A stretch of DNA of 64,000 nt, taken from positions 192,160 through 256,159 of the forward strand of contig SCTI01000002.1 of NCBI GenBank assembly GCA_004297735.1. The letters run 5' to 3'. Position 1 is the first letter of the stretch, and every line of letters starts with the position of its first letter. Below the pieces are notes generated by a model. The model saw only the letters and a list, made by a program, of their open reading frames with translations, was not told the origin of the DNA and did no database searches. Positions 1,677 through 18,611 of this stretch are shown in pieces. The stretch comes from Patescibacteria group bacterium. GTDB lineage: Bacteria; Patescibacteriota; Saccharimonadia; UBA4664; SCTI01. Made by a program: the position numbers and the translations under genes.

Positions 1677-1853
1677 AGACCCGGGTACTGCCTTCTTACA
1701 AAAACCAACTGCCATACTTGCAATTTTTTGTAAAAGTTGTAATTTGACATTTTTGTTAATAAAAACTATCCTTATAGGCAGTTTGGGCGGTCTCACAAAG
1801 TGGATCGCTAAATTTATTGGGCTTTAACCCATATTAATGAGGAGAGTTTAAAT

Positions 1854-2066
1854 ATGAGTCGCTACTCCAACCTTGACTCTTACGCCTTGTTTTACGAAAA
1901 AATTGAGGGCGGTAACCCCCATACCGTTTCGAACACCAACACCGGCAACCGAGCCACGTCCGGCGTCCCTACCCTACCAAAAGAGCAGCTAGCTGAACTC
2001 AGCCGCGACATAAATCAACCAATTGTTGAGACCCCCGACACCAACCCACACACCTCGCAGCAATAG
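1854..2066 (+). CDS. hypothetical small protein (70 aa)
   Basis: RBS gaggag 8 nt upstream. Followed by an intrinsic terminator at 2067-2088. Confidence 0.4.
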   Translation: MSRYSNLDSYALFYEKIEGGNPHTVSNTNTGNRATSGVPTLPKEQLAELSRDINQPIVETPDTNPHTSQQ

Positions 2067-2088
2067 CCGGCTGACTTAGCCGGTTTTA
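2067..2088 (+). terminator. intrinsic terminator (ccggct-gactt-agccgg + TTTT)
   Basis: Perfect 6-bp stem followed by a T-run directly after the stop codon of ORF 1854-2066. Confidence 0.5.
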
Positions 2089-2159
2089 TTGTGGCTTGCT
2101 TGTTCGCCTTTTGTTCGGTATAATAGATGTGGGGATACTTCTAAGCAGGAGGAGTTGTT

Positions 2160-2585
2160 ATGAAGCAGCAGCTTACAACATCAAGGCATAAGTTAAGAGT
2201 TTATCAGCTAAGTCGACAGCTAGAGGACGATATTCATGAGTTGATCAAACAACTCCCCGCTTCGGAGTTCTATGGCCTCGGAGATGAGCTGAGGCGTGGT
2301 AGCGCTACGGTCGCCCATTACATCAGCGAGGCCGATCAGCGCTACAGCTACAGCCTTAAAGTCGAAACCCTCAATCTAGCTCGAACCGCCATTCGCCAGG
2401 TCAGAGAGCTGCTAAGCCAGTACCAAAAAGAGTCCTTTGGGAGCACTGCCGAGATACGCAAGCAGTACCAGGCTCTTAGCCAGCAGCTATGGGCCCTGAT
2501 AGCCCACTACCGCCGCCGGCAGCAGGAGCGACAGAGCCGGGCTCGAATTAAGGCGGCCGACGCACTAGCTTTTGCCCGCAGCTAA
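2160..2585 (+). CDS. four-helix-bundle protein (23S rRNA intervening-sequence protein family, TIGR02436-like)
   Basis: Motif LPASEFYGLGDELRRGSATVAHYISEA resembles the FP+SE+YGL.SQ+RRAA.SI..NIAEG signature of this family. Strong RBS aggagg. A TTGCTT-17-TATAAT promoter lies at 2096-2124. The stop overlaps dinB. Confidence 0.5.
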   Translation: MKQQLTTSRHKLRVYQLSRQLEDDIHELIKQLPASEFYGLGDELRRGSATVAHYISEADQRYSYSLKVETLNLARTAIRQVRELLSQYQKESFGSTAEIRKQYQALSQQLWALIAHYRRRQQERQSRARIKAADALAFARS

Positions 2586-2589
2586 AGCC

Positions 2590-3840
2590 ATGGGGATTGA
2601 GCGACTGCTATCCCAGCAGCCGGTGCACGGAAGGATTATCTATATCGACATGGACTCCTTTTTTGCCTCGGTTGAACAGCAAGTAAACCCGGATTTGCGG
2701 GGTAAGCCGGTCGCGATCTGCCCCTTTCTACATAATGCCACCTCGGTTATAGCCGCTTCGATCGAAGCTAAGCGACTTGGCGTCCGCACCGGTACACCGG
2801 TTCGAATGGCTAAGCAGCTATGCCCCGGTCTAGTCTTGCTCGCCGACACCCCCACTAGCTACCGCCAATTCCATAGCGCCATCATGGCCGAGCTAGCCGA
2901 AACCCGCTGCCAGGTAGAGGTGCGAAGCATCGATGAGGCCGCTCTAACCGTGCCGTATGACTTGGTACCAACTGCTCCTAAGGTTGCCCATGAGGTGCAA
3001 GAGCGCATATTTAAGGTTGGCAGCCAGCTAAGCTGCTCCGTCGGAATAGCCAGCAACCGCTTTTTAGCTAAAATGGCCACCAAGCTACACAAACCCGGAG
3101 GCATTGCCGAGCTAAGACCGGAAGACCTGCCAGTCTACTATGAGCTGCTAGAGCTAACCGATCTATACGGCATCTCCTGGCGGATGGAGCGACGGCTTAA
3201 CCGACTAGGGATTACCACCCCGCAAGGCTTCTACCAAGCCTCCCACCAGCTGCTAGAGCAGGCTTTCGGTATTGAGGGAACTCGCTGGTATCTACGACTG
3301 CGCGGCTATGAGGTTGATGGGCGCCAAACCAAGCGCGGTATGATTGGCCACCAAACCACCATAACCCCTGAACCGGCCACCGAATATGACCAGATAGCGC
3401 TAGTGGCCAGTCAGCTTTGCCATCGGGCCTCCTATCGCCTACGGCTAGCCGGACTAGCGGCGCGCTGTCTGTCGGTTGGTTTGCGCTATAGCGACCGTAG
3501 CAAGCAATATCGTCGCTACTACACCCACTATCCGTTCTGGGATGCAGACAGCTGCGTCAGGCACGCCAGCAAGCTCCTTAAAGACATACCCCTAGATCAA
3601 CCGGTGCGCCTGGTAGACGTAAGCTTATCCCGGCTCTCGCCTCAAGCCGATCTAACTCTGTCTCTATTCCCCGAAAAAACCCCGTTTAAGCAGATAAGCT
3701 CGGTGGTTGATCAAATCAATGGGCGCTGGGGGCGAGGCACCATTAAGCCGGCCCTGCATCTGGGTAGCCAGCAGGCTCGAGACCGAATTGGCTTTGGTAA
3801 CGCCCACCAGATGGCCTCAGAAAAGACCCTACAGACTTAA
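2590..3840 (+). CDS. dinB: DNA polymerase IV (Y-family, DinB)
   Basis: IIYIDMDSFFASVEQ...GKPVAI catalytic signature of Y-family polymerases; about 416 aa. The ATG at 2590 is preferred over the TTG at 2572 given by the ORF track. Confidence 0.85.
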   Translation: MGIERLLSQQPVHGRIIYIDMDSFFASVEQQVNPDLRGKPVAICPFLHNATSVIAASIEAKRLGVRTGTPVRMAKQLCPGLVLLADTPTSYRQFHSAIMAELAETRCQVEVRSIDEAALTVPYDLVPTAPKVAHEVQERIFKVGSQLSCSVGIASNRFLAKMATKLHKPGGIAELRPEDLPVYYELLELTDLYGISWRMERRLNRLGITTPQGFYQASHQLLEQAFGIEGTRWYLRLRGYEVDGRQTKRGMIGHQTTITPEPATEYDQIALVASQLCHRASYRLRLAGLAARCLSVGLRYSDRSKQYRRYYTHYPFWDADSCVRHASKLLKDIPLDQPVRLVDVSLSRLSPQADLTLSLFPEKTPFKQISSVVDQINGRWGRGTIKPALHLGSQQARDRIGFGNAHQMASEKTLQT

Positions 3841-10842: not shown

Positions 10843-11229
10843 CTACACCAATGCCTTTGCTCGCCCAGAACTCTGATTAACCAGCTTTTTATCAAATGTC
10901 CAAACCGGCAGGGCGCCCTGCAGCTCAGCGTAATTCATAAGGCAGCAATCCAAGAATGATAAGGCGGGATGGTCTAAATACTCGGTGATTGCTCGGCGGA
11001 ACATGATGCGGTTACAGTTAAAAACCGGCTCATCAACTACCTTATTGAGATTATCAGCCACCGTCTCTCGTGGAAGCTCATAAAACTTCTCCAGCGCGAA
11101 GGCAAGCTCCACAATAATTGCATCTGGAATCTGCAGCTCCGGCGAACGCACCAACAGCGCGTCGATTTTAGCGGTTCGATCTACGTCACGGTCAAGCAAC
11201 CAGTCTAGGAGCACATTCGTATCTAACAC
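10843..11229 (-). CDS. vapC: type II toxin VapC (PIN-domain ribonuclease)
   Basis: MLDTNVLLDWL PIN N-terminal motif with conserved Asp; 128 aa; directly downstream of the antitoxin. Confidence 0.8.
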   Translation of the reverse strand: MLDTNVLLDWLLDRDVDRTAKIDALLVRSPELQIPDAIIVELAFALEKFYELPRETVADNLNKVVDEPVFNCNRIMFRRAITEYLDHPALSFLDCCLMNYAELQGALPVWTFDKKLVNQSSGRAKALV

Positions 11230-11230
11230 C

Positions 11231-11485
11231 TTAAACCGACCCTTTTACCTGTGCAGTATACCCCGCCCCGCTAACATACTCCTTGTGAGCAGTCTTGGCT
11301 TTTGCGAGAGCCTGCTTGTTGGCGGCCCGCAGCTCTTGAATGGTCTGCTCGCGGCCAACTACATACTCTCCGTATCGATTTCGAGTAAACGAAACCAACA
11401 TACCTGGTTTAATACCAAGATGATCGCGAATATCCTTCGGAATAGTGGTCGTACCCTTGTCGGTGAGTATGGTTTTATATGTCAT
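11231..11485 (-). CDS. vapB: type II antitoxin VapB (AbrB/MazE/SpoVT swapped-hairpin fold)
   Basis: TIPKDIRDHLGIKPGMLV SpoVT/AbrB-type DNA-binding motif; 84 aa; 1-nt gap to vapC. Confidence 0.75.
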   Translation of the reverse strand: MTYKTILTDKGTTTIPKDIRDHLGIKPGMLVSFTRNRYGEYVVGREQTIQELRAANKQALAKAKTAHKEYVSGAGYTAQVKGSV

Positions 11486-12845: not shown

Positions 12846-12922
12846 GGGCTCGTGGTGTAGAGGCCTAACATGCCTCCCTGTCACGGAGGAGATCGCCGGT
12901 TCGAATCCGGTCGGGCCCGCCA
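12846..12922 (+). tRNA. tRNA-Asp (anticodon GTC)
   Basis: Acceptor gggctcg/cgggccc (one G-U); anticodon loop ctGTCac; GGTTCGAATCC T-arm; CCA encoded. A TTGCCA-17-TACTAT promoter lies at about 12800-12830. Confidence 0.85.
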
Positions 12923-12951
12923 TTGCAATTATAAGTGTTTTGTGGTATAGT
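12918..12951 (+). promoter_or_regulatory. sigma70-type promoter P1 (cattgcaattat ... TTGCAA-17-TATAGT), starts in the tRNA-Asp 3-prime end
   Basis: -35 TTGCAA at 12923-12928, 17-bp spacer, -10 TATAGT at 12946-12951. One of three near-identical promoters. Confidence 0.5.
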
Positions 12952-12994
12952 AATTAATCCTAATTCTGTAAAGACTCTACAGGAAGAACCTACC

Positions 12995-13501
12995 ATGTCA
13001 GGAATCACCCCGGCACACACCAAGCGTTGGCTCGAAGAGCGGGCTTGGTGGAGCGCCAACTGGCGTAGCTGCCTTGCCACTCTCGACTCCGAGCGAGCCC
13101 TCACGTTCGTAAAGATGCATTACGGCCTAGATGACAATGGTCAGCCGAGTGCTGATCGCCAGGGATCTACGCTCAAATACCTTGGGGTCTCGTACAACTG
13201 TTCGCCCGAGAGAGTGAAGATGCAGATCAATGAGACAAAAAACCTCCTTCAGTCGCCGCTCGAGCCACAAAGCTACGTGGTAATGCGAATGCCTCGCCGC
13301 TTCAACCCACCGGTAAAGAACTTGCCGCTTTCTCAACGGCTACTCAACAGACTGGCAGAAAGGATTGGCACCCTCAATGAGCTGCTGGCTCTTACGGAGG
13401 AAGATATCCTCAAGATCCCCAGCGTGGGTGATCACCTGCTAAAGGAGCTGACTGAGTACCTCGAGGCTCGCGGCCTCAAGCTGGCTCAGCCAGTCTCGTG
13501 A
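12995..13501 (+). CDS. chimeric sigma-70 region-4-like HTH + RNA polymerase alpha-subunit C-terminal-domain-like (HhH) protein
   Basis: N-terminal half LDSERALTFVKMHYGLDDNGQ...TLKYLGVSYNCSPERVKMQINETKNLL aligns by eye to sigma-70 region 4.2 ([48 protein letters not shown]). C-terminal [54 protein letters not shown] aligns to alpha-CTD ([53 protein letters not shown]). Start at MSGITPAH (12995) chosen for its RBS aggaag. Confidence 0.5.
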   Translation: MSGITPAHTKRWLEERAWWSANWRSCLATLDSERALTFVKMHYGLDDNGQPSADRQGSTLKYLGVSYNCSPERVKMQINETKNLLQSPLEPQSYVVMRMPRRFNPPVKNLPLSQRLLNRLAERIGTLNELLALTEEDILKIPSVGDHLLKELTEYLEARGLKLAQPVS

Positions 13502-13619
13502 CTCCCAGCGCCTCGTGCGCAGCAAAAGCTCTACGGAGAGATTCCGTACCAGCCCGCTGCGTGCGGGGCGCTTTTGCTATTCTGGTGCGGAAAAGTTCTA
13601 ACCTCATCCGATACGACCC

Positions 13620-13652
13620 ATCATTGCAATTATTTAATATTTATGTTATAAT
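13620..13652 (+). promoter_or_regulatory. sigma70-type promoter P2 (tcattgcaattat ... TTGCAA-17-TATAAT)
   Basis: -35 at 13624-13629, 17-bp spacer, -10 TATAAT at 13647-13652. Confidence 0.5.
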
Positions 13653-13707
13653 ATAACAATCTTTTCAAGTGTACCTGGTGCGTAAGCACTCAACTAAAGG
13701 AGCAGCC

Positions 13708-14061
13708 ATGCCCAGCCCATTCATGGCAGATATGGGAACCGGTCCGGTGTACGGTGCGGATGAGGACAACGCGGCCACCAACATCAAGACCCTCATCGCC
13801 GACTGCGGGCTAGAGGGTGCCTCATGCGTACGTGATGCCTCGGGTGACTGCGACGGTCGCTTCACCTTCGTGATCTATCGGCCCGACGCTGGTCTCTGCG
13901 CGGTCGTGGACATGCCGGGACTCCAGCTCGAGAAGGTTCGGCGCATGGGAGACGACAACGTGGTCGGCTTCCCACGGCTCTACGTCAATGGCGGGAGCTG
14001 GATCTGGATGTACGCGGTCGACATCATCAAGATGTCGCTCGAACCGACTGAAGACGACTAG
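13708..14061 (+). CDS. hypothetical protein (117 aa), high-GC
   Basis: RBS aaaggag. GC content markedly above flanks. Confidence 0.45.
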   Translation: MPSPFMADMGTGPVYGADEDNAATNIKTLIADCGLEGASCVRDASGDCDGRFTFVIYRPDAGLCAVVDMPGLQLEKVRRMGDDNVVGFPRLYVNGGSWIWMYAVDIIKMSLEPTEDD

Positions 14062-14070
14062 GAGCAGATC

Positions 14071-14275
14071 GATGAACACCCTCGTGCATATCGTGTTGGG
14101 CGTCTTCCTACTGGCGACAGGCGGAGGGCTTCTCTGGCTTGCCAGGTGGGGCTACCGCAGCTACCTCAAGGAAGCGCCGCGTGGCTACTACCACATGCTG
14201 AACCAGATGACGGTTCTCATCGTCGGAGCCTGCTTCAGTTTTACGGCGGCGATCATCTTGTTCGCCACCATCTAA
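14071..14275 (+). CDS. hypothetical small two-TM membrane protein (68 aa)
   Basis: RBS taggag; two hydrophobic helices. The ORF track gives a longer out-of-context start at 13988. Confidence 0.4.
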
Positions 14276-14449
14276 CCCCCATGGGTTTTCATGAAGTTTT
14301 ATGAAGGCCCCTCTGGGGGTTTCTTCGTAGTATGTATGCAGAGAGACCGGCGGAGGCTTTTCATTTGTATTTATAAGAGTTTTATGCTATAAGTATGTAC
14401 TTGTGGCCTCTATAAGAGGAGGCTTGTTCGACCAGGAGGTCAAAACAAC

Positions 14450-14851
14450 ATGCCAAGCACCATTTCGCTGGGGCTGACGCCATCGCTCGTACGCATGGCT
14501 CAGAAGGTTCTGGAGGCCTATAAGGCCGACTACCTCGATAGGGAGGGTCATGAGGATGCCTACTTCGAAACCGCCGAACACACGGTGAAGCATCTGATCC
14601 CCAACCTGCACGCAGCCATCCGCTTCGTCAACGAGCTGTGCGAAGCCGGCTACGGCCTGATCGTGCCGGATAGGGAGGACCAAGAGGCGCTACTCCCCAC
14701 GCTCGCTGCTTGGCACCAGGAAGGTAGCTCATTCAAGCCGCTCGATCTGCTCGAGTTCATCCGTGGCGTCGCCCGGGCGCACATCTGGGATCAGCTACGC
14801 AACGAGGCCAATGCGATCCGAGTTCAGCGCGGTGAGTGCCCGGCCGGCTAG
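14450..14851 (+). CDS. hypothetical protein (133 aa)
   Basis: RBS accaggagg; followed by a conserved terminator. Confidence 0.5.
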   Translation: MPSTISLGLTPSLVRMAQKVLEAYKADYLDREGHEDAYFETAEHTVKHLIPNLHAAIRFVNELCEAGYGLIVPDREDQEALLPTLAAWHQEGSSFKPLDLLEFIRGVARAHIWDQLRNEANAIRVQRGECPAG

Positions 14852-14862
14852 CCCCAAGCAGC

Positions 14863-14899
14863 AAGGAAATCCCTGCCGTTTGGGGCTCTTTCCTTTTTT
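14863..14899 (+). terminator. intrinsic terminator, conserved family member (aaggaaatCCCTGCcGTttGGGGctctttcc + T6)
   Basis: Nested stem plus T-run. Shares about 25 nt with the hairpins at 15943 and 19285. Confidence 0.55.
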
Positions 14900-14940
14900 A
14901 TGCATTTGACCTTATCCCCTCACCCTCTCATTATCTAGAC

Positions 14941-15444
14941 ATGGAGAATAAAGAGCTACGGACCGAACTGCTAGCGATGCGTAAAGCCGATCAATCTTTG
15001 CGCCTGCAGTGGCCAGACAAGCACAATGACCCTAAGTGGGTTGAGCGGGTCAAAGAGCTTGATCACCTACACACAACGCGAATGAAGCAGATTGTCGAGC
15101 AAAATGGCTGGCCGACAGTCTCTATGGTCGACAAGGATGGCTCTGAGGCGGCTTGGTTGTTGGTTCAGCATGCCGATCATGACCTGGAGTTTCAGCTTAC
15201 TTGCCTGGATTTGATGGGAAAAAAGGCCAATGATGTTGACCCGATTAACATCGCTTACCTCACCGATCGCACCTTAGTAAGCCGAGGCAAGCCCCAAATC
15301 TATGGCACCCAGTTTTACCGACCAAGCGGCAAGGGCAAGCATATCCCGCAACCGATTCAAGATCCTGAGCTTGTTGATGAGCGCCGTGCTGAGCTTGGTC
15401 TGCATACGCTTAAGGAGTATTCGCAAGTTATCAACCGAGAATAA
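14941..15444 (+). CDS. hypothetical protein (167 aa)
   Basis: Start moved to MENKELRTEL because the ORF-track start at 14836 would read through the terminator. No strong RBS. Confidence 0.4.
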   Translation: MENKELRTELLAMRKADQSLRLQWPDKHNDPKWVERVKELDHLHTTRMKQIVEQNGWPTVSMVDKDGSEAAWLLVQHADHDLEFQLTCLDLMGKKANDVDPINIAYLTDRTLVSRGKPQIYGTQFYRPSGKGKHIPQPIQDPELVDERRAELGLHTLKEYSQVINRE

Positions 15445-15454
15445 GCCGTCTCTG

Positions 15455-15487
15455 GCTATTGCAATTATTTCATTTTTATTATATAAT
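15455..15487 (+). promoter_or_regulatory. sigma70-type promoter P3 (ctattgcaattat ... TTGCAA-17-TATAAT)
   Basis: -35 at 15459-15464, 17-bp spacer, -10 TATAAT at 15482-15487. Confidence 0.5.
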
Positions 15488-15522
15488 AAATAATCTTTCG
15501 TCCTACAATAGGGAGTAAAGCA

Positions 15523-15900
15523 ATGACTACCTTCAGTAAGGTCAAAGACGTACTAGAGCAGGCCAACACCGACTGCGAGCGGCTCCGCCTGGAGGCAGAT
15601 GCCCGCCTTCAGGGAGCGCAAGATGCTGAGGGCTATAGAGCAAAGCTGGTTGAACGCGCACAGATAGTCGCCGCTCTCGGCAAAAAGGTTGAACCGCTCC
15701 TCGGAAACTCTCCTGCGGAGCTGGACCTCTACCACCGCATACTCACGTTGGCGGGCACAGCAGAACATGCCCTCAAGGAGTATGAACAAGATCAGAGCGG
15801 GACTTTGGGGTTGGGCGTAATCCTCCACTATCGGGACGATACCACGAACGACCCAAATCGCCTGGAGCGTCTAGTAGAGCTCGCGGGCAAGTTGTCCTAA
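15523..15900 (+). CDS. hypothetical protein (125 aa)
   Basis: RBS gggag 7 nt upstream; coiled-coil-like. Confidence 0.5.
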   Translation: MTTFSKVKDVLEQANTDCERLRLEADARLQGAQDAEGYRAKLVERAQIVAALGKKVEPLLGNSPAELDLYHRILTLAGTAEHALKEYEQDQSGTLGLGVILHYRDDTTNDPNRLERLVELAGKLS

Positions 15901-15942
15901 TCACCGCCACCATACGGACCCCCATCTAGTCCTCATGCAGTA

Positions 15943-15980
15943 CGGAAAATCCCTGCTGTATGGGGGCTTTTTCGTATTTT
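15943..15980 (+). terminator. intrinsic terminator, conserved family member (cggaaaatCCCTGCtGTatGGGGGcttttcg + tatttt)
   Basis: Same conserved core as the hairpin at 14863. Confidence 0.5.
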
Positions 15981-15994
15981 GTTATACTGCATTT

Positions 15995-16687
15995 ATGTCA
16001 AACCGGTTAGAAAAATACTTTTATAAAAATAAGGGGCGCCAAATATATAAATGGGTTCATTATTTTGATATCTACGATCGGTATTTTAAGCAGTTTCGTA
16101 AACGACCAGTTACGGTTGTGGAGTTTGGGGTGCTTCATGGTGGCTCACTGCAAATGTGGAAAAAATATTTTGGGCGCAAGGCACGCATAATTGGAGTAGA
16201 TATAAACCCCGGATGCAAGCAGTTTGAAGAAAAGCAGATTGAAATTTTTACCGGCGACCAGGCAAGTCGCAGCTTTTTACGAAAGCTTCGCAAAGAAATT
16301 GGACCAATTGACGTAATCATTGATGACGGCGGTCACACAATGAAGCAGCAGATTACAACCTTTGAAGAAATGTGGCCAGCTATGAGCGATGGCGGTGTTT
16401 ACTTAATAGAGGATCTCCACACCAGCTACTGGAAGCTATATGGGGGTGGCTACCACAAGCGCGGTACTTTTATTGAATTTGCCAAAGATCTTATCGATCA
16501 ATTAAACGCTTGGCATAGCCGAGACAAAAAACGGTTTAAAGTAAATAAGTATACCAAGAGCATAAAGGCGATTCATACGTATTCAAGCGTAATGGTTTTT
16601 GAAAAAGCCAACATTACTCGACCTTACGATGAGCAAAGAGGCCATGAAAGCGATATTGAGTTTTCTTACCTCGGCTTTAGCAAATAG
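15995..16687 (+). CDS. class I SAM-dependent methyltransferase, CmcI (cephalosporin hydroxylase)/rhamnosyl-O-methyltransferase family
   Basis: KWVHYFDIYDRYF, VVEFGVLHGGSL, IIDDGGH and YLIEDLH are signatures of the PF04989-type MTase (from memory). Low GC (about 38%). Start at MSNRLEKYF chosen to avoid the terminator. Confidence 0.6.
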   Translation: MSNRLEKYFYKNKGRQIYKWVHYFDIYDRYFKQFRKRPVTVVEFGVLHGGSLQMWKKYFGRKARIIGVDINPGCKQFEEKQIEIFTGDQASRSFLRKLRKEIGPIDVIIDDGGHTMKQQITTFEEMWPAMSDGGVYLIEDLHTSYWKLYGGGYHKRGTFIEFAKDLIDQLNAWHSRDKKRFKVNKYTKSIKAIHTYSSVMVFEKANITRPYDEQRGHESDIEFSYLGFSK

Positions 16688-16737
16688 CCACCTACTGCAC
16701 CGGGTCTTTCTACCCGTTGAACATATTGACAATAAAC

Positions 16738-16763
16738 ATACAATTATTGTATATTTATTGTAT
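16738..16763 (+). promoter_or_regulatory. RHH/RelE operator: atacaat-t-attgtat 7-1-7 inverted repeat plus third half-site attgtat overlapping the start codon
   Basis: Seen directly; palindrome sits between a TTGACA -35 (16725-16730) and the ATG. Confidence 0.5.
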
Positions 16764-16989
16764 GAAGAAACTATCAAATACTCGGACTATTAATATATCC
16801 CTGCCAGTAAAACTGGTAGACGAGATGGATAAGGCCGCCCAAGGTGAGTACTCCACCCGTAGCGATTTTATTCGTGACTCTATTTTGCGAAAACTGAGCT
16901 CAACTCAGGATCGCTGGGAGTTAGCGGCAGATTTTACCGCTGTTAAAAGGGGTGGCGTAGATATTGACGAACTTCTAAAGCGACTGTAG
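16762..16989 (+). CDS. ribbon-helix-helix antitoxin (CopG/ParD family)
   Basis: TINISLPVKLVDEMDKAAQGEYSTRSDFIRDSILRKL is the classic RHH beta-strand/helix motif. 75 aa from MKKLSN. Confidence 0.7.
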   Translation: MKKLSNTRTINISLPVKLVDEMDKAAQGEYSTRSDFIRDSILRKLSSTQDRWELAADFTAVKRGGVDIDELLKRL

Positions 16990-16998
16990 CACCCGCTG

Positions 16999-17244
16999 AT
17001 GACCGATAAGCTTACGAAGCAGCTGGCCAAGCTCAGTACTAAAGAGAGAGCGATCGTGAAAACGATGTTATTACAGCTCAAAACGGGTGATATTCTTGGT
17101 TTACAGATTAGCCGACTTAAGGGTCACGAGGATATTTTTCGCCTCCGCAAAGGTAGGTTGCGTATTATTTACCGACAAGTGGATGATTCTATCCATATCC
17201 TGGCGATTGAGAGAAGGTCCGAGAAAACTTATCGCGACTTTTAA
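16999..17244 (+). CDS. type II toxin, RelE/ParE family
   Basis: 81 aa. RIIYRQVDDSIHILAIERRSEKTYRDF C-terminus is typical of the RelE/ParE fold. Located 10 nt after the antitoxin stop. Confidence 0.75.
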   Translation: MTDKLTKQLAKLSTKERAIVKTMLLQLKTGDILGLQISRLKGHEDIFRLRKGRLRIIYRQVDDSIHILAIERRSEKTYRDF

Positions 17245-17396
17245 TGAATTGTTAATGTTTAATATTAGACATTTTTTAGTAATTATGTTATGCTTTATCT
17301 CAACTACAGGTACTGCCACTTTATAACCAGGCAGTAGTGATGAATGTTAGACTTCTGGTCTCGACTGTTCGTCAGCCGAGTAGCAGAAAGGTATTC

Positions 17397-18611
17397 ATGC
17401 AACGTAAATCAAGTTTTAAGTCCCCCTCTACCCGAGGCGGGAAGGTATTTCGTAATAATAAGTTTGGCGGAGGTAATCGCCGACGTAATGGTGGTGGCCA
17501 GCACGGTAAGTACATTGACCCGTCACGATTCGTAAACACCGCCGTAGAGCGGGCCGAAGAGGCACCATTTGTGCCTGAACATAGCTTTAACGACTTTGGC
17601 TTACTGCCTCAGCTAGAAAAAGCGCTGGCGGCCAAGGGCTACTCTACCCCTACTCCAATTCAGGACGGTGCAATCAAGCCGGCAATGGAAGGTCGCGATG
17701 TGATTGGTCTCGCCAATACCGGTACCGGTAAAACGGCGGCCTTTACCCTACCGATCATTCACCGCTTGGTAAATCAGCCACAACTAGGAATCGCTTTGAT
17801 TATGGCCCCGACTCGCGAGCTAGCGGTCCAGATCGATGATGAGTTTAAAGAGTTCGCCAAGCATACCCACCTAAAATCGGCGCTGTGCCTGGGCGGTGTA
17901 AGCATTCACCGTCAGATTGCTCAGTTAAGGCGACGCCCACAGGTAATCATTGGAACTCCTGGGCGACTTAAGGATTTGTTTAACAATAATCACTTGCCAC
18001 TAAACAAGGTTGGCGTAGTGGTACTGGACGAAGCCGACCACATGTTGGATATGGGCTTCATTCAGGACATTCGCTTTTTACTCGGTCAGCTGCCGGATAA
18101 GCGCCAGTCGCTATGCTTTAGCGCTACTCTCACACCTGAGATTAAACAGCTGATTCACGGGATTATGACCGATCCGGTTACCGTTTCGGTTCGCACCGGC
18201 GACACCAGTAGCCAGGTCGAGCAAAACGTCATTCGCGGTGGCTCGAAGGAAGATAAGTTCCGTATTCTGGAAGAGATGCTGCGCCAGCCCGACTTCGAGA
18301 AGGTTCTGATTTTTGGACAGACCAAGTTCGGCGTACAACGACTGGCCGATAACCTAACTCGGATTGGCATTGCTGCCGAGGCGATTCATGGTAACAAAAC
18401 CCAGCCAAAGCGTCAGAAGTCACTGCGGGCCTTTAAGAGCGGCCAGGTTTCAGTATTAGTGGCAACCGATGTTGCCGCCCGTGGCCTGGACATTCCAAAG
18501 GTAAGCCACGTGATTAACTTTGATCAGCCGGCGACCTACGAAGACTACATTCACCGCATTGGCCGTACCGGCCGCGCCGGACGCACCGGCCAAGCTCTGA
18601 CTTTTATTTAA
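17397..18611 (+). CDS. DEAD-box ATP-dependent RNA helicase with N-terminal RGG/RNG-rich extension
   Basis: Q-motif, ANTGTGKTAAF (motif I), VLDEADHMLDMGF (DEAD), SAT and HRIGRTGRAGRTG (motif VI). N-terminus RGGKVFRNNKFGGGNRRRNGGGQHGK. Start at 17397 (RBS gaaagg) preferred over 17337. Confidence 0.85.
   Translation: MQRKSSFKSPSTRGGKVFRNNKFGGGNRRRNGGGQHGKYIDPSRFVNTAVERAEEAPFVPEHSFNDFGLLPQLEKALAAKGYSTPTPIQDGAIKPAMEGRDVIGLANTGTGKTAAFTLPIIHRLVNQPQLGIALIMAPTRELAVQIDDEFKEFAKHTHLKSALCLGGVSIHRQIAQLRRRPQVIIGTPGRLKDLFNNNHLPLNKVGVVVLDEADHMLDMGFIQDIRFLLGQLPDKRQSLCFSATLTPEIKQLIHGIMTDPVTVSVRTGDTSSQVEQNVIRGGSKEDKFRILEEMLRQPDFEKVLIFGQTKFGVQRLADNLTRIGIAAEAIHGNKTQPKRQKSLRAFKSGQVSVLVATDVAARGLDIPKVSHVINFDQPATYEDYIHRIGRTGRAGRTGQALTFI

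Follow-up and report, generated by a model that had tools for sequence, protein, structure and literature searches.

The open reading frame at positions 12995-13501 (+ strand) of the 64,000-nucleotide stretch of DNA that we analysed (the window) encodes a protein, P0001, that joins two modules of RNA polymerase in a single chain. Residues 103-165 or so form a genuine alpha C-terminal domain of RNA polymerase (alpha-CTD), and residues from about 22 to 87 are a strongly diverged sigma-70 region 4 helix-turn-helix (HTH), a relationship that is real but that shows a weaker signal. P0001 belongs, as a very divergent member, to an uncharacterised class of sigma4-alpha-CTD fusions known from several phage and mobile-element contexts, and the proteins of this class are probably DNA-binding transcription regulators. 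P0001 itself counts neither among the sigma factors nor among the alpha subunits.

The gene and its product

The 507-nt frame starts with the ATG at 12995 and ends with the TGA at 13499-13501, and both the list of open reading frames and an exact database match ('hypothetical protein EPO04_02720 [Patescibacteria group bacterium]') delimit a product of 168 amino acids from a Saccharibacteria-like bacterium, where the original prediction had counted 169. A Shine-Dalgarno-like AGGAAG can be read from the sequence at 12981-12986 (+ strand), 8 nt 5' of the ATG. The in-frame extension 5' of the frame (from the GTG at 12935) falls within the promoter and has no sigma-like character. It had been anticipated that the frame might turn out to be an rpoD or rpoA pseudogene fragment, for example one with a continuous rpoD-like frame upstream; this alternative is excluded, as tRNA-Asp and a promoter lie directly 5' and no rpoD- or rpoA-like frame adjoins.

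A homologue search by word index with the protein alone as query returned only the protein itself. Among 1.84 billion representatives there was no close homologue, the best matches being no closer than E 1e-19 and covering the alpha-CTD only. P0001 is hence a sequence orphan, which leaves neither covariation nor a conserved neighbourhood from which to infer its function.

Evidence for an alpha-CTD

The alpha-CTD-type double helix-hairpin-helix (residues 103-165; 13301-13489, + strand) was delimited by Pfam, phmmer against PDB, Foldseek and a map of equivalent residues. Pfam RNA_pol_A_CTD (PF03118), a family against which the original prediction had suggested checking, matched residues 103-157 above its gathering score (31.2 bits versus a cut-off of 23.8; E 1.9e-7), and the top PDB sequence match was the Thermus thermophilus alpha-CTD (1doq; phmmer, E 6e-6). 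The structural superposition suggested at the same time agreed, with the AlphaFold model (pLDDT 84-87 in this domain) fitting the Bacillus subtilis alpha-CTD 3gfk_B with an rmsd of 1.0 Å over 62 columns and reaching a target-normalised TM of 0.84 against 1z3e_B (Foldseek). Models of rpoA aligned with P0001 only over their last 65-80 or so positions, with 33.7 bits versus a cut-off of 277, and the N-terminal dimerisation and assembly domain (RNA_pol_L / RNA_pol_A_bac) had no Pfam match in the protein. Because this assembly domain is absent, P0001 cannot be an RNA polymerase subunit.

Three key residues of the Escherichia coli alpha-CTD, R265, N268 and G296, are retained in P0001 as R115, N118 and G145, and three further DNA-contact positions are substituted (K298 by H147, S299 by L148 and N294 by S143). 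In the alpha-CTDs of the sigma4-bearing relatives (n = 38) R265 and G296 are conserved in 100% and N268 in 84%, an argument for DNA contact being what selection maintains in the class. The protein-contact determinants 261 and 287 show no conservation.

Evidence for a diverged sigma region 4

The N-terminal module (residues 22-87; 13058-13255, + strand) comprises the 4.1 helix and the 4.2 HTH of a divergent sigma-70 region 4, as hmmsearch, hhalign, PDB matches, Foldseek and the residue map indicate. The original prediction had aligned this domain by eye and placed it at residues 45-105. The homology that it proposed is real, although the signal is much weaker than the alignment suggested, and the limits found, in numbering from the ATG, are about 22-87. 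Pfam Sigma70_r4 and Sigma70_r4_2 (PF04545 and PF08281), through which the domain was expected to be recognised, had no match in P0001 even at E <= 10, and the NCBIfam SigB and SigA models reached only E 0.011 and 0.032. When the N-terminal 103 residues were compared with PDB, three matches were obtained at E <= 10, all of them region 4 of SigA or SigB, with actinobacterial proteins best. A profile built from 45 sigma4 domains of alpha-CTD-bearing proteins found the domain with 19.5 bits (hmmsearch, E 3.4e-8) and, in hhalign, with 92.9% probability over residues 22-87 (E 3.6e-7). The signal emerged solely with this profile, a smaller one of seven sequences giving 5.4 bits and 24% in hhalign. 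When the whole window was translated in six frames, the frame at 12995-13501 was the sole match to both the sigma4 profile (E 3.2e-5) and the alpha-CTD profile, and neither profile gave any other signal there.

Foldseek with the alignment-based AlphaFold model recovered sigma4 at probability 1.00 (6onu_H; target-normalised TM 0.69, rmsd 2.7 Å). The model had a pLDDT of 77-83 across most of the domain, from an input alignment that included clear sigma4 sequences; a single-sequence model of residues 1-100 had a pLDDT of 48 and was uninformative as an independent test of the fold. Both the HTH core (T59, L60, G64) and the hydrophobic core positions of regions 4.1 and 4.2 (L27, L30, F38, V39, Y43, L60) are retained, and the turn between 4.1 and 4.2 carries a 7-residue insertion (about residues 46-52, DDNGQPS). 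The residues of E. coli sigma that contact the -35 element, R584, E585, R586, R588 and Q589, correspond to P71, E72, R73, K75 and M76; three of these five are kept or conservative (E72, R73, K75) and two are replaced (R584 by P71 and Q589 by M76). Past the recognition helix, sigma70 residues of about 600-613 are replaced by the linker. There is no Sigma70_r2 match in P0001, which has merely 21 residues N-terminal of the region 4-like domain, and because regions 1-3 are absent the protein is not a sigma factor.

The two modules are connected by a flexible, basic, proline-rich linker (residues 88-102; 13256-13300, + strand), recognised from an AlphaFold pLDDT below 50 and from charge analysis, with pLDDT values of 74-87 within the domains of the alignment-based model. 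The charges follow those of the native domains, basic in the sigma4 half and mildly acidic in the alpha-CTD half. Profiles, Pfam and fold matches together uphold the two-domain reading first put forward, namely a sigma region 4 HTH and, C-terminal to it, an alpha-CTD helix-hairpin-helix.

Relatives and the fusion class

The relatives were examined as a set of 128 alpha-CTD-bearing representatives of 50%-identity clusters related to P0001. Sigma70_r4 was present at E <= 1e-5 in 23 of these 128, true RpoA proteins accounted for only 4 of the 128 nearest representatives, and the alpha-CTD of P0001 groups with the non-RpoA alpha-CTDs. Both Sigma70_r4 and RNA_pol_A_CTD were found by Pfam in P0135, P0013, P0143 and P0036, and precomputed Pfam lists place them together in P0153, P0154, P0155 and P0257. 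The original prediction was aware of no described family with this architecture; in fact it recurs in public protein collections, and our literature searches found no paper that describes such a fusion. These relatives share with P0001 the order of HTH, linker and C-terminal alpha-CTD, some being of similar size (P0135, 181 aa; P0056, 136 aa), and differ from it in sequence, with 25-33% identity over the aligned parts only. Their sigma4 halves exceed the Pfam threshold or come close to it, which that of P0001 does not.

The three whose surroundings were examined lie in phage or mobile-element settings. P0154, on a phage contig, is encoded 5' of a block of genes that ends in a capsid gene; P0257, on a phage-like contig, follows a RecT/PcfJ/YopX block and precedes presumed packaging or late genes; and P0153 adjoins a Bro-N gene and a SNF2-type helicase. 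Relatives match phage families annotated in PHROGs as 'RNA polymerase sigma factor', and P0001 matches no PHROG.

Promoters, terminator and genomic island

ARAGORN places a tRNA-Asp (GTC) at 12846-12922 (+ strand), in agreement with the neighbour originally assigned to the gene, and the 3' end of this tRNA directly adjoins the -35 of the promoter that serves the gene. This promoter, P1 (12922-12951, + strand), consists of a -35 TTGCAA (12923-12928), a 17-bp spacer and a TG-extended -10 TATAGT (12946-12951), and was identified by consensus scan, motif search, alignment and window-wide comparison. Two further promoters on the same strand were located by scan, motif search and alignment, both of the form ATTGCAATTAT ... 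TATAAT: P2 (13623-13652; TTGCAA-17-TATAAT at 13624-13652), 5' of hypothetical genes at 13708-14275, and P3 (15458-15487; TTGCAA-17-TATAAT at 15459-15487), 5' of a gene at 15523-15900 and a methyltransferase gene. The 11-bp block ATTGCAATTAT (12922-12932 in P1) is identical in the three promoters, and the palindrome ATTGCAAT lies within it. Elsewhere in the window, promoter-like sites have TTGACA or TTGACT in place of TTGCAA. In all three the DNA 5' of the -35 is G+C-rich and an A/T tract lies 3' of it. Duplication of a promoter within the island could, as a simple alternative, account for the shared block. A scan of IMG/VR viral contigs for ATTGCAATTAT-N13-TATAAT gave single, chance-like matches only, and the retrieved stretches contained no related protein.

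Downstream of the frame, RNA folding revealed a likely intrinsic terminator (13507-13576, + strand), formed by a long GC-rich hairpin (13507-13572) and a U-run; the hairpin folds at -47.9 kcal/mol (z -3.84), and 0 of 200 shuffles fold as well. The gene is its own, monocistronic transcription unit and not the first gene of one operon. The original prediction had set it at the head of a cassette driven by three reiterated promoters: the three similar promoters are real, whereas 'head of a cassette' is loose wording for a monocistronic gene that ends in a terminator of its own (13507-13572).

The gene sits within a strain-specific island of 4.4 kb whose upstream edge is tRNA-Asp. A relative (L013) has the syntenic arrangement tRNA-Thr/Gly/Asp ... 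helicase ... tRNA-Arg, and the island region differs completely among relatives; in 80 related genomes, none of the island genes turned up 10 kb or less from the orthologous helicase. A second copy of the tRNA-Asp 3' end, which would be an integration scar, was not found in the window, and no recognisable phage genes were detected in the island. Comparison of the island genes with PADLOC, PHROGs and PDB gave nothing informative, and no Sigma70_r2-like protein was found among them (Pfam, PHROGs and PDB sequence searches) or elsewhere in the window (phmmer with RpoD).

Proposed function and alternatives

We propose, with confidence midway between doubt and acceptance, that P0001 is a stand-alone two-module DNA-binding regulator of the genes in this accessory island beside tRNA-Asp. 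The sigma-region-4-type HTH would read the major groove, in the way sigma reads the -35 hexamer, and the alpha-CTD-type helix-hairpin-helix would read the adjacent A/T-rich minor groove through R115, the equivalent of alpha R265. With some 15 residues of flexible linker between the two DNA-reading modules, a single chain carrying both would be expected to bind cooperatively to a composite site made of a -35-like hexamer plus an A/T tract. Candidate targets would be the three island promoters with ATTGCAATTAT over the -35, the gene's own promoter among them, and binding at P1-P3 would either occlude the site from RNA polymerase or aid its recruitment. Each of these elements is inferred, from the binding to DNA and the choice of sites to the direction of the regulation. 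The functions first suggested for the protein, which might occlude or bridge -35/UP DNA or act as a sigma/alpha decoy, are hypotheses in the same way. Since two -35-contact residues and three alpha-CTD contact residues are replaced, affinity may be low or specificity altered.

An unlikely though not negligible alternative is that P0001 acts by docking on RNA polymerase. Its sigma4-like domain would replace the resident sigma region 4 on the tip of the beta flap, as in T4 gp33 or sigma appropriation, and the tethered alpha-CTD would add or redirect an upstream DNA contact, so that the polymerase is re-programmed to island or phage promoters or the host sigma is blocked. The beta flap is the natural partner of sigma region 4, the hydrophobic core of regions 4.1 and 4.2 is retained, relatives match the sigma factor families of PHROGs, and gp33 and the phage 'minimal' single-HTH sigma factors have been described as acting on the flap (PMC7824862). 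Against this, P0001 has no region 2 or other core-binding element, the C-terminal part of region 4 (sigma70 ~600-613) has given way to the linker, and the neighbouring genes include no detectable sigma2-like partner.

Quite unlikely, in our opinion, is that the gene is a decaying or functionless orphan, what is left of a mobile-element regulator, stranded in a variable region and, whether expressed or not, without a current role. The remoteness of its best homologues (no closer than E 1e-19, alpha-CTD only, among the 1.84 billion representatives), a surrounding region that is completely different between relatives, a sigma4 too diverged for Pfam and the several substituted DNA-contact residues would all be consistent with such decay. 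The 168-codon frame is nevertheless intact and has a good promoter, a Shine-Dalgarno sequence and a terminator, and both domains keep their core structural residues and fold with confidence in the alignment-based model (pLDDT 74-87 in the domains).

It is improbable that a free alpha-CTD (or sigma4) serves as a decoy that titrates activators or anti-sigma-type proteins without binding DNA. Activators touch RNA polymerase mainly on alpha-CTD and sigma4, and the fold search returned examples of such contacts (Spx/alpha-CTD, WhiB1/sigma4 and CAP/alpha-CTD), but conservation throughout the class falls on the DNA-contact residues (R265 and G296, 100%) and the protein-contact determinants 261 and 287 vary. 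Small genomes of the Saccharibacteria type probably encode few classical activators. Split sigma factors have a precedent in SigO-RsoA of B. subtilis. That P0001 should likewise lend region 4, along with an UP-element reader, to a region-2 protein encoded by another gene is hardly credible, for although T4 gp55/gp33 is another two-subunit precedent (PMC7824862) and three identical non-consensus -35 elements could mark a private regulon, no Sigma70_r2-like protein was found in the island or the window by the searches described above and the -10 elements are the canonical TATAAT.

Returning to P0001 as a DNA-binding regulator of its island, a broader scenario may be considered, to which we attach a low probability. 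Sigma4-alpha-CTD fusions may be widespread 'portable upstream-promoter readers', at least partly borne by phages and mobile elements, that act as a single-chain UP-element/-35 unit by occluding promoters or by retargeting host RNA polymerase from the beta flap, where they would take the place of host sigma region 4, P0001 being a domesticated or stranded member that controls the three-promoter island through ATTGCAATTAT. RNA polymerase reads the upstream half of bacterial promoters with sigma region 4 and the alpha-CTD, the two modules through which most activators work. A natural single-chain fusion that recurs in many unrelated clusters and in phage contexts would make a compact and easily testable model, could reveal how sigma4 and alpha-CTD cooperate on DNA away from the polymerase, and may represent an unrecognised route by which mobile elements repress host transcription or redirect it. 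The benefit for the window is modest, namely a plausible regulator of a strain-specific island in an uncultivated bacterium with a reduced genome. The transcription regulators of Patescibacteria are, to our knowledge, poorly characterised.

Comparison with known systems

T4 gp33 is not known to read DNA sequence itself. Like the phage 'minimal' sigma factors it is a phage-borne protein, a relative or analogue of sigma region 4, that acts on host RNA polymerase via the beta flap (Iyer et al. 2021, PMC7824862); these proteins have a single HTH, as does the N-terminal half of P0001, but lack an alpha-CTD. The LtrA-family phage proteins, which contain Sigma70_r4 only, have been proposed to bind DNA, and control of the late terS promoter has been demonstrated for one member (Quiles-Puchalt et al. 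2013, PMC3753634). P0001 resembles these mobile-element-encoded late activators of Gram-positive phages in being small and in having a sigma region 4-like HTH, and the phage relatives P0154 and P0257 occupy comparable genome positions, 5' of capsid or presumed late genes. It differs from them in carrying an alpha-CTD and in having neither a recognisable phage around it nor a terS neighbour, and the comparison is one of features, P0001 having no PHROG match. Because the island is without recognisable phage genes, it is the relatives that carry the analogy with phage late activators.

With the alpha-CTD of RpoA, P0001 shares the fold (rmsd 1.0-1.2 Å), the equivalents of R265, N268 and G296 and the tethering by a flexible linker; it differs in the missing alpha N-terminal assembly domain and in the replacement of K298, S299, N294 and the 261 determinant. 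With sigma-70 region 4 (PF04545) it shares the helix pattern, the HTH and the motif L-x-x-L-(D)SER...YGLDD...TL..LG...S.ER(V)K, and it departs from it in scoring below every curated threshold, in the 7-residue insertion and in the changes of R584 to P and Q589 to M. A likeness in arrangement is offered by PDB 3n97, itself among the fold-search matches, in which an isolated sigma4 and an isolated alpha-CTD lie side by side on UP/-35 DNA. There each domain belongs to a different RNA polymerase subunit, and the two make contact via alpha D259/E261, the equivalents of which in P0001 are N109 and P111, and the DNA differs from P1-P3, where the G+C-rich sequence stands 5' of the -35 and the A/T tract 3'. 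The structure shows that the geometry of sigma4 and alpha-CTD on one DNA is feasible, and the fusion, with the same two modules, would be its natural single-chain version.

The two halves of the protein

The product of the ORF at 12995-13501 had been read, in the original prediction, as a fusion of sigma-70 region 4 (sigma4) to the RNA polymerase alpha subunit's C-terminal domain (alpha-CTD), and this reading was confirmed by the Pfam alpha-CTD match, by a profile of 45 sigma4 domains and by Foldseek. The C-terminal half is solidly an alpha-CTD. Residues 103-157 pass the gathering cut-off of Pfam RNA_pol_A_CTD, 23.8 bits, with a score of 31.2 (E = 1.9e-7), the match to the NCBIfam rpoA models is confined to their last ~65-80 positions, and the top PDB sequence matches of the protein are alpha-CTD chains, with 1doq first (E = 6e-6). 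AlphaFold, given an alignment of six sequences, returned a model of mean pLDDT 74.9, in which this domain has pLDDT 84-87 and superposes on the B. subtilis alpha-CTD to 1.0 Å over 62 columns.

The N-terminal half is a real, very diverged sigma region 4. Pfam reported no Sigma70_r4 match for the protein, and the NCBIfam SigB and SigA models gave E values of 0.011 and 0.032, respectively. Comparison of the N-terminal 103 residues with the whole PDB yielded just three matches at E <= 10, all to region 4 of mycobacterial SigB/SigA, in alignments spanning 'RSCLATLDSER', 'YGLDD-GQP', 'TL..LG' and 'SPERVK'. A profile of seven Pfam-verified sigma4 domains scored only 5.4 bits (hhalign 24%), whereas that of 45 sigma4 domains, taken from alpha-CTD-bearing proteins retrieved with the window protein itself as query, scored 19.5 bits (E = 3.4e-8; hhalign 92.9%, E = 3.6e-7, residues 22-87). 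The low sigma4 scores are mainly due to the insertion of seven residues in the turn that joins regions 4.1 and 4.2. Among the six-frame ORFs of the whole window, this one was the sole match to both the sigma4 and alpha-CTD profiles. The alignment-based model has N-terminal helices at residues 23-29, 33-43, 60-66 and 71-86, and Foldseek related this domain to sigma factors at probability 1.00, for example to the isolated SigA region 4 of 6onu_H (target-normalised TM 0.69, rmsd 2.7 Å), the modelling alignment having contained clear sigma4 sequences. Structural modelling supported both domains in this way, but a single-sequence prediction of residues 1-100 (pLDDT 48) was uninformative on the fold. 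The linker (residues 88-102) is basic, proline-rich and modelled with low confidence.

Neither sigma region 2 nor the alpha N-terminal domain was present in the protein by Pfam and NCBIfam, no rpoA or rpoD lies in the 64-kb window and no sigma- or alpha-like sequence adjoins the ORF. That the ORF could be an rpoA or rpoD pseudogene fragment, a possibility raised with the prediction, is therefore ruled out.

Relatives and the fusion class

When 1.84 billion cluster representatives were searched exhaustively with phmmer, 165 proteins matched at E <= 1e-3, with the window protein alone below E 1e-30; judged from these comparisons, its sequence is an orphan and its architecture recurrent. The matches were mostly proteins other than RpoA that carry between one and ten alpha-CTD repeats, and a few database proteins (P0135, P0056 and P0032) aligned over both halves, with a visible sigma4-type HTH before the alpha-CTD. 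Sigma70_r4 and RNA_pol_A_CTD were both found by Pfam scan in P0135, P0013, P0143 and P0036, and in precomputed Pfam lists for P0153, P0154, P0155 and P0257, so that the architecture, contrary to what had been supposed, is not unprecedented. An alpha-CTD was present in 127 of the 128 scanned representatives, 23 of which also had Sigma70_r4 at E <= 1e-5, and four were true RpoA; the looser sigma4 profile detected sigma4 in about 45 of 150 relatives. We found no description of the sigma4 + alpha-CTD fusion in the literature. The window protein is a very divergent member of this catalogued, functionally unstudied class.

Proteins combining TPR repeats with alpha-CTD form a sizeable class of their own (21/128 representatives), and P0002, P0003 and P0006 are large proteins (890-1030 aa) with 9-10 tandem alpha-CTD repeats. 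Non-RpoA alpha-CTD proteins make up a large and apparently unstudied world.

P0257 is encoded on a phage-like contig, after RecT, PcfK/PcfJ and YopX genes; P0154 on a phage contig, where small unannotated genes precede it and a block ending in a capsid gene lies downstream; and P0153 on a bacterial chromosome, following a gene for Bro-N and one for an SNF2-type helicase. All three match families that PHROG names sigma factor or transcriptional regulator/activator, and the window protein matched no PHROG family. The contig of P0257 (L001) also holds, at 2883-3386, a second, separate sigma4-like ORF whose frame spans 168 aa from stop to stop (161 aa in the called gene, 2904-3389; sigma4-profile E 2.6e-6).

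The gene and its island

The coding sequence runs on the forward strand from ATG 12995 to TGA 13499-13501, and its 168 residues are identical to the deposited 'hypothetical protein EPO04_02720 [Patescibacteria group bacterium]' of a 495-kb contig. A promoter-like site (12923-12951; TTGCAA, 17 bp, TG-TATAGT) directly follows the 3' end of tRNA-Asp at 12922, AGGAAG lies 8 nt 5' of the ATG, and a GC-rich hairpin followed by a U-run (13507-13576) stands directly after the ORF, the hairpin (13507-13572) having an outer stem of 17 bp and an inner branch (-47.9 kcal/mol, z -3.84). These signals make the gene a transcription unit of its own. The 66-nt hairpin is longer than intrinsic terminators usually are. 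The longer frame from GTG 12935, which starts within the promoter, is probably not used.

Downstream, the DEAD-box helicase (17337-18611) has its best relatives in Saccharibacteria/Saccharimonadales genomes (identity up to 66%), and a syntenic Saccharibacteria genome among them (L013) retains the order tRNA-Thr, tRNA-Gly, tRNA-Asp, helicase, tRNA-Arg. The interval between tRNA-Asp and this conserved helicase is a variable hotspot, measuring 4.4 kb, filled with orphan genes, in the window (12923-17336) against 1.5 kb with unrelated ORFs in the relative (1826-3395). In 80 related genomes, no homologue of the nine island proteins, nor of the genes between tRNA-Gly and tRNA-Asp, lies within 10 kb of the helicase. 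Besides the window protein, the island encodes hypothetical genes, a DUF6624 protein (14941-15444; Pfam E 7e-28), a CmcI/Methyltransf_24-type methyltransferase (15935-16687) with a weak match to PADLOC 'mad2', and an RHH and RelE/ParE-like pair (16762-17244, forward strand; weak precomputed Pfam RHH_1, RelE/ParE-like by eye). This pair and an AbrB/SpoVT-like and PIN-like pair (10843-11485, reverse strand; translations read by eye only) flank the island as toxin-antitoxin-like modules. Searches of the island with PHROGs and PADLOC gave no phage or defence-system signature, and the window holds no second copy of the tRNA-Asp 3' end. A separate assembly of the source run (L005; Logan contig SRR8426595_87643, position 1-102) starts ~100 bp upstream of the gene and so breaks at tRNA-Asp, which would fit a repeat or strain heterogeneity at the junction.

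Three island promoters within 2.5 kb share an identical 11-bp block, ATTGCAATTAT (12922-12932, 13623-13633 and 15458-15468), which includes the palindrome ATTGCAAT lying over the -35 element. Its sole further copy in the 64 kb is within the EF-P gene, and the remaining promoter-like sites of the window have TTGACA or TTGACT. Either the promoter was duplicated or the block is a common operator.

Possible mode of action

Mapped on E. coli RpoA, the key minor-groove residue R265 corresponds to R115 of the window protein, N268 to N118 and G296 to G145, with K298, S299 and N294 replaced by H147, L148 and S143. Across 38 alpha-CTDs of relatives that carry sigma4, R265 and G296 are kept in 100% and N268 in 84%, and the 261 determinant, which contacts sigma in RNA polymerase, shows no conservation. 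On E. coli RpoD, the counterparts of E585, R586 and R588 are E72, R73 and K75, those of R584 and Q589 being P71 and M76. Sigma R584 reads promoter position -31, and TTGCAA differs from TTGACA at -32/-31; this is a lead, not evidence.

The best-supported reading, to which we give an even chance, is a stand-alone regulator whose two DNA readers, tethered to each other, bind a composite site. In this reading the sigma4 HTH would occupy the major groove and the alpha-CTD an adjacent A/T-rich minor groove, probably at the island's own promoters, and binding could lead to repression by occlusion or to activation. PDB 3n97, among the Foldseek matches, has isolated sigma4 and alpha-CTD side by side on UP/-35 DNA. 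Docking on the beta flap, where the diverged sigma4 would replace host sigma region 4, seems unlikely. Rather doubtful is an orphan remnant without function. A decoy for ligands of either domain is improbable, and one half of a split sigma factor, carrying region 4 and lacking region 2, is the least credible.

The class merits experiment, but the window copy is a lone orphan of an uncultivated organism. We rate the class as a variant of known sigma4-only regulators. Its closest experimentally characterised kind are the LtrA-type proteins, a Sigma70_r4-only family that controls the late terS promoter of Gram-positive phages and of which one member has been tested (PMC3753634).
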